A DNA stretch of 64,000 nucleotides from assembly GCF_003704095.1 (NCBI RefSeq), contig NW_020844103.1, positions 310,001-374,000 on the forward strand, in the 5' to 3' direction. The position numbers and the translations under genes are program-made. The stretch comes from Pocillopora damicornis (Eukaryota). The notes under the pieces were generated by a model. The model was not told the DNA's origin and did not search any database. It saw only the letters and a list, made by a program, of their open reading frames with translations. Positions 45,678-49,204 of the stretch are shown here, one piece after another (the stretch's first letter is position 1; each line of letters starts with the position of its first letter).

Positions 45678-46586
45678 TCAGGGCATATGAGGGAGTTCGT
45701 TGAAGGATTTGTTATCAATGCAGTCACACATACACTTATAAGCCCCGCGCATGCACAGACCATATTCGTTATCGGGGTTATTGATACAAGTGTAAAAATA
45801 ATAGTTACAACTTCGGCAGCAGTCAAACACTTGCTTGCAGACGTACTTCTTGGCCGGTTCGTTTGCGAGCGAAGGACGCAGATAAATTGCTGCAGCATCA
45901 CGGCATAACACTGGGTAGTTTTCGTAGCTAAGGTATTTGTCCTCGTCCTGCATGTTTAAAAAAGACATATAATCAGGGTCATCATTGATACTTCTTACTG
46001 TACGCAGTTACATGTAGGAGGGTTTTAAGGTGCATGATATACACCAATTTACGTTATCAATTCAGTTGATATTACTAAATTACCCTGTTATAACAATAAA
46101 ACAGCTTGAAGTACCATCCCTGGTGAACTGAACGCACTACGCCTACGCCAAAACAACTGATAGCTAAGTACAAATTATGGTAAGAGAGTCAAAACAGAGG
46201 GTAAAGCAAAATCTTCTTATTTTCCGGTTGGTATTTGCTGCTCACGCGTATAAGTAAGATTAGGTGCATTGCGATACTTAGATTTTTCTTTTAATGCACA
46301 AACGTATCCTTGCAATATTATAACCACATACCCGAACATCGTGCGGCAACCTGCTAACGTTAAGCTTGTTACACTCGCTAGCACAGTCACAACTCATATT
46401 ATGACTGTCCTCTTGAACCATTTGTGCATCAATAAGCTTTTCTTCAAAACTCGGCAGTTTAGGTTCATCTGGTATTCTTTCGAGGGCTTCGTGAGCTTCG
46501 TCGTTGTAAAAATCCCTCGAAGCGTATTGGCCTTGGGCAGCCAAAAGCGTAGCAGCGAAAAAGTAAATAAACAAATACGATTTCAT
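45678..46586 (-). CDS. Secreted Cys-rich protein A, 174 aa (exons 46586-46332, 45947-45678)
   Basis: Signal peptide MKSYLFIYFFAATLLAAQG, acidic segment, 13 Cys, phase-0 GT-AG intron. TATAAAA at 46683-46677, CCAAT near 46735, AATAAA at 45485-45480. Confidence 0.8.
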
Positions 46587-48415
46587 ATTGACGGGTGAGA
46601 AAGAAGTTTTTATATTGGAAATCCGTGTTCAAGAAAACGAAGAGTACACTGAATGAGTTTGGGGAGGTAAAAAGCCTTTTATATCGCATCAACCATACGA
46701 GATTGACCTGAATAACTGTGGCTTCATTTTGATTGGCTACTCCTAAAGGATCGGCCAAGCATAACTTTGTTAGTACAATGAAATGTTATCATGTATGCGC
46801 ATATACAAGCCTATTTTCTCAATGCGTTTACATGCGAAACGATAAATACAAGCTTAAAAAGAATAAATCTTTATGATTTGCCGGTTGTCAAAAAAGAGAC
46901 TTTTTAAAAGAGATTTTGTAGCTAAGATTAATGACAATGAATATCTTGTTTGTGAGTATTATTCCAGTTTACAGCATACGTGACTTTTTTCTCGGCTTTT
47001 TTCCCGTTATCTCTTGAAAAATAACTTATATTTGTCATTAAATTGCCGATCCACTTCAAAACGTTACATAAAAGCTGTTCCGACATGCACAGTATAAGAT
47101 CGGAAACTTCTTGAAATAAACAAAGTGTGGCATTTAAATTTTAAGAGCTTACATGGACAGGAATGTTATTAATCTTTATCTCAAATTTTTATCGGTGAAC
47201 CCCATATACACCACAGGAAACGCGAAAACAAGAAGTATCGCCAGACGTGGATCTGGTGCGTCCATTGTCAATATATCACTCTCAATCAGTAGGAGGAAAA
47301 AACAGTTTTCTGTACACGTGCAACCAACAGAGCTTCATAATATCACTTGCAAAAAGATTAAGTACATCCGCACGACGTTTGTTATGAAAAAAAAACTGCA
47401 AGTCAACTTTGTTTATTACGATCTTTGAGCATTTCTCTCTCTTTTTTTTTCCTATTACGGGTCCAAGGCAACAAAAAATAATAAAGGTATTCTTGAATAG
47501 CAAGTAAATTCATAGATTTTATCGGTTTGTACACAAGCCAGCCGGCTGAATTCCTTATACATGTATACTCGCGACCTCACGAGAAAAAATGGCAATTTTC
47601 TAATGAGTTTGACTTATCGAGAAGGTAGTATAGGTAATAGGATTATTTCGAGTGCCATTTGGTGTCAATAAGCACGAGTGAATTTTTCAAAGACAACAAA
47701 ATTGCACGAACCCGAAGGGCGAGTGAAATTTGTAGTCTTTGAAAAAGTTACAAGTGCCTATTACACCAAATTTATAGAGAAATCATGTTATTACTTGTTA
47801 ATAATGTACATGAATCAACATCACAGAAAGTCTAAAGAACAGACGAAATTCTGAAAGCGTGCGCGCGCTATTTGTAATTTGCACTTGTGTTACAACTTTG
47901 CACTCTTGTTCAGTGAGAATGCGCTGGTTTTCAGCAGATCAGAAGCGTGCATGTAATTTTTTCGTGTACATTATTACAAATGTTTCAGAATCAAGATCGT
48001 TGTCGGAAGGGAAATTGATGTTTTCAACTAAACATAGAGATAGTGCTTAATAGCACAACTTCTTCAAAAAGTATCAAGGGGGTGCACTTGATAATAAGAG
48101 GATAAAGGAACAAGGGGGTTTCCATTTATATTTCTATATATTTAGTTATTTCAGTAATTTATTTATGTGATCAGTCATATTAAAGGACAACAACGAATTT
48201 CGTATCAAACATTTATTTTGACAATAGGTTACAAAAACTTCGTTACATGGAGGGAATTACTTGCTAATGTTGATTTTGAAGTACTGGAGGTTAAAACTAT
48301 TTAGCAATGCTAACAATGAACTGATCAGGAAAAAAACTTCCCTTAATAGGATAGATATACCGTTCGGTAAATTAATGCCACAGCATAGGAAAAATTGAAA
48401 GAGTTCTCCAGGAAT

Positions 48416-49204
48416 TTAAGGGAATGGGGCGATTTCTGGTGGTGAGTTCTTTTCTATGCATTTACCCATACAATTGAAGGACTGACGATAGCAGTACTCT
48501 GGACCGCCGTTTAAAGCCCCATTTTGATCCAAACATTTCTTGTGGACTGCGTTACAATATCGGCAGCAATCGAACAAGTACAGCAACATAAACTGACATT
48601 TGTACAATGGATTTTCGTTGAAAACGATAGTAGAAGCCAGGACACAGTTGGTAGGCATCTCTTGAAATTTATGGAAGCTGGTGTTTTTCTGTTCATTAAA
48701 AACAAGCGGAAAAGTTTAGAAAACCAAGAATGTAACCGATAAAGATTATTAATTGTATATGGGAACTAAAAAGTACATCAGTTTGTGTCCTTTTCAAATG
48801 ACGCGTTCTTTATGGGGTGCTTCGGTTGCTCTAGAAAGCCGTGGAACCTGTATCATGCACGGTGCACGAGACTAGAAATCTCATGCAGTTTACGCCTATT
48901 AGACTTGGATACTCGTAAGAACCAATAAATACAACTTAAGAAAGCAAAATTTTCTTACTGTTAAAAAATCCGGCACGTCTAACTTTTGGCACTCTGGCTC
49001 ACAGCGGGCGAGACACTGAGTGGAATCATCGTTCTGTGGAACACGCGCCACGCTATTCTCGTCTTCGATCTGAAAGCTGGTTAAATCCGGCAGAAGTGCT
49101 CTATGCTCTGGGCGAAAGAAACGTTTTACACGTTCCTCGGTGCTGAATCCATTCACCATGGCAATAGCGAGGGTAAACCTAACAAAAAAACTGCAAGTCT
49201 TCAT
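48416..49204 (-). CDS. Secreted Cys-rich protein B, 172 aa (exons 49204-48959, 48688-48416)
   Basis: Signal peptide MKTCSFFVRFTLAIAMVNG, RVKR furin-type site, 12 Cys after the signal, same intron position as protein A. TATAAAA at 49319-49313, AATAAA at 48217-48212. Confidence 0.8.

Follow-up and report, generated by a model that had tools for sequence, protein, structure and literature searches.

A family of predicted secreted, cysteine-rich stony-coral proteins represented by a tandem gene pair in Pocillopora damicornis

Introduction

Acrorhagin I and the nemertean neurotoxin B-IV are described as four-disulfide hairpin peptides of 50–55 residues that are toxic to crustaceans (PMC13608440, PMC11722136, PMC6410017). 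SCRiP precursors are 68–83 aa long, with eight cysteines that include a CCC near the C-terminus and a beta-defensin-like fold (PMC10892658), and damicornin and AmAMP1 are given as six-cysteine, ShK-related proteins (PMC12466427).

Here we report on two neighboring genes, A and B, within a stretch of 64,000 nucleotides of the Pocillopora damicornis genome (contig NW_020844103.1, positions 310,001 to 374,000), hereafter the window. A preliminary description, made from the letters alone, had taken their products for a divergent pair of secreted proteins defining an unrecognised, fast-evolving family of toxins, antimicrobials or signalling proteins. Fibrinogen, C1q and the secretoglobin pairs are secreted hetero-oligomers encoded by clustered paralogs. 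What they have in common with the proteins studied here is that the chains are of old, conserved types, have spare cysteines and are encoded in clusters. They serve as a working analogy only; no sequence or fold relation to them was found.

Results

Gene structure and expression

Genes A and B are both on the minus strand, with B upstream of A (Table 1). The RNA evidence consisted of contigs from four studies and showed that both genes are real, spliced and expressed. The intron of gene A was spliced out in all four RNA runs, with contig joints that had 28–30 letters on their short side. The intron of gene B was spliced out in three of the four, exactly in X1 and X4 and one base off in X14; the joint was not seen in X13. 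Two tandem two-exon genes with the same intron position had been proposed, and this proposal held, as the RNA joints placed both introns in phase 0 and in the same column of the A–B alignment. The predicted TATA boxes and polyadenylation signals were also found for both genes, with a poly(A) tail of gene B present in run X4. The contig depths of A and B rose and fell together over the four runs, depth being a poor measure. In-frame insertions relative to the window occurred in runs X4, X13 and X14 at 45877 (3 bases, in the loop of A) and 48417 (6 bases, at the C-terminus of B). Dispersed short repeats, to which many unrelated contigs mapped, were present in the intron of gene A (46044-46092) and between the two genes (47640-47950).

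The product of gene A has 174 aa and 13 cysteines, all of them past the signal peptide, and that of gene B has 172 aa and 13 cysteines, one of which is within the signal peptide. The translations are the database proteins P0138 and P0150, which are named as hypothetical or uncharacterized Pocillopora proteins. The signal peptides remain predictions, in keeping with hydrophobic N-termini (12-residue mean 2.3 for A and 2.1 for B). The Cys-bearing regions of the two window proteins had net charges of -2 and 0.

Elsewhere in the window, an uninterrupted frame of 455 aa (34383-35750, minus strand) matched Radical_SAM (E 1.3e-11) and, weakly, a B12-binding domain; such a frame is odd for an animal genome and was possibly acquired horizontally. 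Exons of the Mpv17/PMP22 family flank the gene pair (38542-39036 and 52762-53289, plus strand), a duplicated gene has two near-identical exons with PAN domains at 122-619 and 7272-7667 (plus strand), and a tandem repeat region at 23608-24559 produces long spurious frames.

Table 1. Features of the gene pair, family loci and related genes in P. damicornis (window positions unless a locus is named)
Feature	Location	Strand	Description
Gene A exon 1 CDS	46332..46586	(-)	residues 1-85: predicted signal peptide, acidic linker, C-x-C-x3-C cluster
Gene A intron	45948..46331	(-)	384 nt, GT..AG, phase 0; short repeat inside at 46044-46092
Gene A exon 2 CDS	45678..45947	(-)	type-A domain, 10 Cys, predicted helical hairpin
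TATAAA 5' of gene A	46678..46683	(-)	RNA contigs end at 46634
AATAAA of gene A	45480..45485	(-)	X4 contig end at 45477
Gene B exon 1 CDS	48959..49204	(-)	residues 1-82: predicted signal peptide, conserved N-terminal stretch, C-x3-C-x3-C cluster
Gene B intron	48689..48958	(-)	270 nt, GT..AG, phase 0
Gene B exon 2 CDS	48416..48688	(-)	type-B domain, 9 Cys, predicted helical hairpin
TATAAA 5' of gene B	49314..49319	(-)	
AATAAA of gene B	48212..48217	(-)	poly(A) tail at 48198 in RNA run X4
Family locus 1	window		B and A
Family locus 2	C1129		B, A and converging C
Family locus 3	C1056		one B exon and one C exon
Carrier gene	L016:1884-7800 (G000:C1056)		four shared exons and an alternative B-type or C-type last exon
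Receptor-like genes	L019:1329-8760 and L021:1789-8743 (G000:C3284)		same ectodomain family, Thr-rich stalk, hydrophobic segment, tyrosine-bearing tail frames

Likeness of A and B and their cysteine framework

The alignment of A and B had 48 identities over 174 aa and a local score of 132, whereas none of 2000 shuffles scored above 63; their profile–profile probability was 99.1%. The cysteine motif that the preliminary description had proposed for the two proteins was upheld, with the correction that the loop spacing is x10 in A and x13 in B rather than x8 or x11. The core common to all types is CC-x2-C-x6-C-loop-C-x6-C-x3-C, with x7 in 3 of 20 B-type sequences. Additional cysteines are at type-specific offsets, with A, B and C each having their own set, and a three-Cys cluster encoded by exon 1 is present in nearly all free (non-carrier) forms.

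The odd cysteine count remarked on for A was found in 8 of the 9 full-length A members; a Porites protein of this type has 12. B-type proteins have 12, 13 or 14 cysteines, and that of the window has an even number past the signal peptide. Other readings of B needed revision. The window protein has the RVKR furin consensus, but only 2 of the 15 B-type proteins examined do, with KR in 13 of 15. The stretch that follows the B signal peptide, previously described as an acidic pro-like region, is conserved in the family alignment, unlike a disposable acidic propeptide.

Family membership, types and gene order

Searches of the P. damicornis genome with the A, B and C exons identified seven exon-2 copies at three loci (Table 1), a number that is a lower bound. 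A weak match on contig C1766 (E 0.016) was without the hairpin cysteines and was dropped. In database searches, all 28 candidates for type A and 41 of the 404 retrieved with a B/C profile belonged to the family. A profile search of the kind that had been suggested, here with 21 members, returned 71 proteins at E <= 0.001 among 1.84 billion representatives; the 32 inspected out of 43 newly found proteins could all be assigned, whole or as fragments, to type A, B or C, with zero distant outliers. Members are 150–187 aa long, with a Cys-bearing part of ~110 residues and 12–14 cysteines, and several orthologs are cationic, up to +10. Named relatives came from seven stony-coral genera (Pocillopora, Stylophora, Orbicella, Oculina, Desmophyllum, Porites and Montipora). 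All of the named matches were thus from stony corals, including a cold-water genus, and as most matches are unnamed a wider range is possible. Source annotations call every member uncharacterized or hypothetical.

A tree was built from 42 domain sequences chosen so as to leave out fragments and near-copies. It had a B branch with support of 98/95 and a C branch with 100/98, with A as the remainder at a weak 47/84. Mean domain identities within types A, B and C were 0.66, 0.55 and 0.51, respectively, versus 0.23–0.28 between types. Judged by these comparisons of sequence, the stony-coral family consists of three paralog types, A, B and C, that are old. The pair had been thought to define a family by itself; A and B do belong to one family, not as a lone pair but as two of its three types.

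The rapid evolution that had been attributed to the family was not borne out. Domain identity was 60–68% between window A and proteins of Montipora, Porites and Oculina. For window B it was 51–67%, to those of Porites, Montipora and Orbicella. As A and B each keep 51–68% domain identity across these genera, the distance between A and B points to an old duplication rather than rapid change. Within each type many non-cysteine residues are invariant, and quick change is limited to the loops and the N-terminal linker of A. At least 21 coding differences between the window and the RNA runs were listed; among these there were 9 nonsynonymous and 3 synonymous differences in A and 4 and 5, respectively, in B, all small numbers, and three of those in A adjoin the in-frame insertion and are possibly misaligned.

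Gene B directly precedes gene A in both P. damicornis clusters, i.e., in the window and on C1129. Montipora (P0171) and Desmophyllum (P0022) have fused gene models with the same order, and the Oculina B and A genes have consecutive locus tags. On C1129 the C gene lies next to the B–A cluster, and in Desmophyllum it is two locus tags away from B. The B–A order spans what we take to be both main stony-coral lineages.

Predicted structure

Structure models were made, as single chains, for P0002 and P0029, two relatives with 95% identity. A C-terminal hairpin was predicted in both, with helices at residues 121-142 and 148-168 in A and 118-138 and 144-163 in B, in agreement with the helical, disulfide-stapled core that had been proposed. 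The pLDDT of this block was 70–86, compared to means of 60 and 54 for the models and values below 60 for the invariant N-terminal half of the domain. These low values may reflect the shallow alignments (21 and 30 rows).

In the fold search that had also been suggested, Foldseek identified nothing at E <= 0.001 for either model. The best Z scores from VIA-align, 5.6 and 6.9, were to generic helical chains and at background level. The hairpin of model B aligned with acrorhagin I (6ux5; Z 5.0, rmsd 2.3, 49 of 50 residues) and with B-IV (1vib; Z 3.0, rmsd 4.2), both at background for helical hairpins, and neither toxin was among the 50 matches listed for model A. The ESM Atlas had no usable match, which speaks for neither absence nor novelty.

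Comparison with known families

Pfam searches of the four window exons and 21 family members had no credible match (best E 0.005, for one member), and nothing under E 0.07 was found by sequence in the PDB. PDB searches with P0002 and three profiles produced no sequence match to acrorhagin I or B-IV at E <= 10. The coral proteins may resemble these toxins, in that they are marine invertebrate proteins, likely secreted, and predicted to have two antiparallel helices with cross-linking cysteines; they differ in their ~110-residue Cys part with 12–14 cysteines, conserved N-terminal half and three types.

The preliminary description had set the pair apart from SCRiPs, ShK and Kunitz proteins, and this assessment stands. 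SCRiPs are likewise secreted, Cys-rich and of stony corals; they were ruled out as A and B have 174 and 172 aa and 13 cysteines, are without a CCC and are predicted to be helical. Damicornin and AmAMP1, also coral secreted Cys-rich precursors, and ShK were ruled out by the 12–13 cysteines past the signal peptide and by there being no ShK Pfam match at E <= 1 in any of the 21 members; the net charges of -2 and 0 of the window proteins are a further difference from damicornin and AmAMP1. Kunitz proteins were excluded as the 21 members had no Kunitz Pfam match; the B profile matched conkunitzin over only 33 residues (E 1.3), which was taken as chance. Group XII secreted phospholipase A2 was also rejected, as the profile compared with the PLA2G12 exon of the same genome had a probability of 0.3% over 12 columns and the family alignment has no conserved HD pair that could correspond to the His-Asp dyad.

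The locus tags of A, B or six relatives appeared in no main text of the published papers searched, and the one supplementary file of PMC11701869 contained none of six family locus tags. A keyword search of the literature, covering titles and the starts of abstracts, found no description of the family. The proteins thus conform to the earlier view of an unrecognised, likely secreted family, and neither a match to a described Pfam or toxin family nor a lack of spliced transcripts was found.

A carrier gene with B-type and C-type ends

At the third locus, the B and C exons are alternative last exons of a gene we refer to as the carrier gene. The part common to both forms, encoded by four exons, consists of a signal-like start, a domain of ~190 aa with 12 cysteines, and a Thr/Pro stalk. 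A single donor in the stalk had joints to each of the two last exons, B and C, in all four RNA runs (contigs, with 27 letters on the short side). Both carrier forms, with the same N-terminal part, are present in Oculina gene models (P0134 and P0131), and 7 of 975 database candidates matched the carrier. The carrier forms are without the three exon-1 cysteines. Carrier-B has 22 cysteines in 3 of 3 proteins and carrier-C has 21 in 4 of 4, an odd total that points to an inter-chain bond. There was no credible Pfam match for the carriers.

The first exons of the carrier matched a gene on C3284 (E 2e-19), where there are two receptor-like genes (Table 1). In the receptor model, which was built from open frames and not from RNA, the stalk is followed by a hydrophobic exon resembling a membrane helix and then by tyrosine-bearing tail frames. 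The paralog next to the matched gene had a Shavenoid N-terminal match that was below threshold (E 0.003). No coding membrane exon was recognised 3' of the C exon in the carrier gene (scan to L016:10000), and we infer that the hairpin exons replaced a membrane anchor in this gene. In an Orbicella carrier model (P0124), the C-type domain runs into a tail with a tyrosine motif, resembling the inner part of a receptor, and there is no obvious membrane helix; this tail is possibly a remnant or the product of a wrong gene model.

Discussion

We tentatively favor, at somewhat less than even confidence, the interpretation that A and B are subunits of a secreted, disulfide-linked hetero-oligomer in which the hairpin serves as an assembly tag. 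This is the best fit to the three co-retained types, the kept B–A order, the type-specific conserved faces, the spare cysteines and the interchangeable B and C ends of the carrier; the types were found to be old, co-retained and clustered. The low pLDDT of the invariant N-terminal half in single-chain models would also be in keeping with it, although shallow alignments may account for those values. In such a complex A would partner with B, and probably with C. Based on their spacing, three disulfides would staple the hairpin, with CC-x2-C-x6-C facing C-x6-C-x3-C, and the chains may contact one another through the spare cysteines and through the N-terminal half of the domain, which is specific to each type. 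We propose that in the carrier gene a membrane anchor has given way to the B and C modules, which would act as assembly tags and link soluble copies of the receptor-like ectodomain, either among themselves or with the complex. Such an assembly would form a scaffold outside the cell and show a binding domain in mucus or matrix. Against this interpretation, tandem paralogs often stay together without binding, and the varying cysteine parity of B (12, 13 or 14) means that a simple A–B pairing of odd cysteines fails. A three-chain heteromer of A, B and C locked by disulfides, as an assembly module particular to stony corals, along with capture of B and C exons by a receptor gene whose splicing builds an antibody-like, two- or multi-armed soluble receptor, is quite improbable.

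A stand-alone toxin or antimicrobial, as had been proposed, is less likely than hetero-oligomer subunits, and no positive evidence for this function was found, the window proteins being near-neutral. In its fullest form this explanation would have A, B and C as defence or venom proteins whose hairpin acts like acrorhagin I or B-IV after release from a precursor. The predicted signal peptide, Cys-rich precursor and tandem duplication would suit it, as would the alignment of the hairpin with both toxins, the KR of most B-types, the A loops that vary among RNA runs and the cationic orthologs. However, that alignment is at background Z and has no counterpart in sequence, cleavage at KR would remove only about ten residues, the domain has stayed conserved in the genera sampled, only seven exon-2 copies (a lower bound) were found in the genome, and the fusion to a receptor-like ectodomain is left unexplained. 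We regard a defence or venom role as unlikely.

The link to a receptor-like ectodomain and the near-neutral window proteins would also fit secreted ligands that resemble hormones or cytokines and act independently, with a separate coral receptor for each type and with the carriers being ectodomain–ligand fusions or decoys. The many invariant non-cysteine residues within each type are consistent with such ligands, but the kept B–A order and the odd cysteine count of carrier-C would be unexplained and there is no resemblance to a known ligand fold, so this too is a doubtful alternative. Similarly low in our estimation is a structural role in capsule, mucus or skeletal matrix, in which the secreted proteins would form disulfide-linked polymers irrespective of type and with no fixed subunit ratio. 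The exon-1 cysteine cluster of nearly all free forms, the variable cysteine parity, the restriction of named relatives to stony corals (a cold-water genus among them) and the full-length transcript contigs in several studies argue for such a polymer, whereas the proteins have no repeats or low-complexity matrix sequence and their source names, uncharacterized or hypothetical, are never skeletal or capsule.

The family is expressed, is undescribed in the sources searched and has three fixed types kept in both of the presumed major stony-coral lineages, which marks a conserved coral function that is without annotation. If the proteins were toxins instead of subunits, the family would be a new one among coral venoms. 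A hairpin that acts as an assembly tag, as in the hetero-oligomer we favor, would be a new protein-joining module, and a receptor ectodomain would then have been turned soluble and oligomeric through exon capture.
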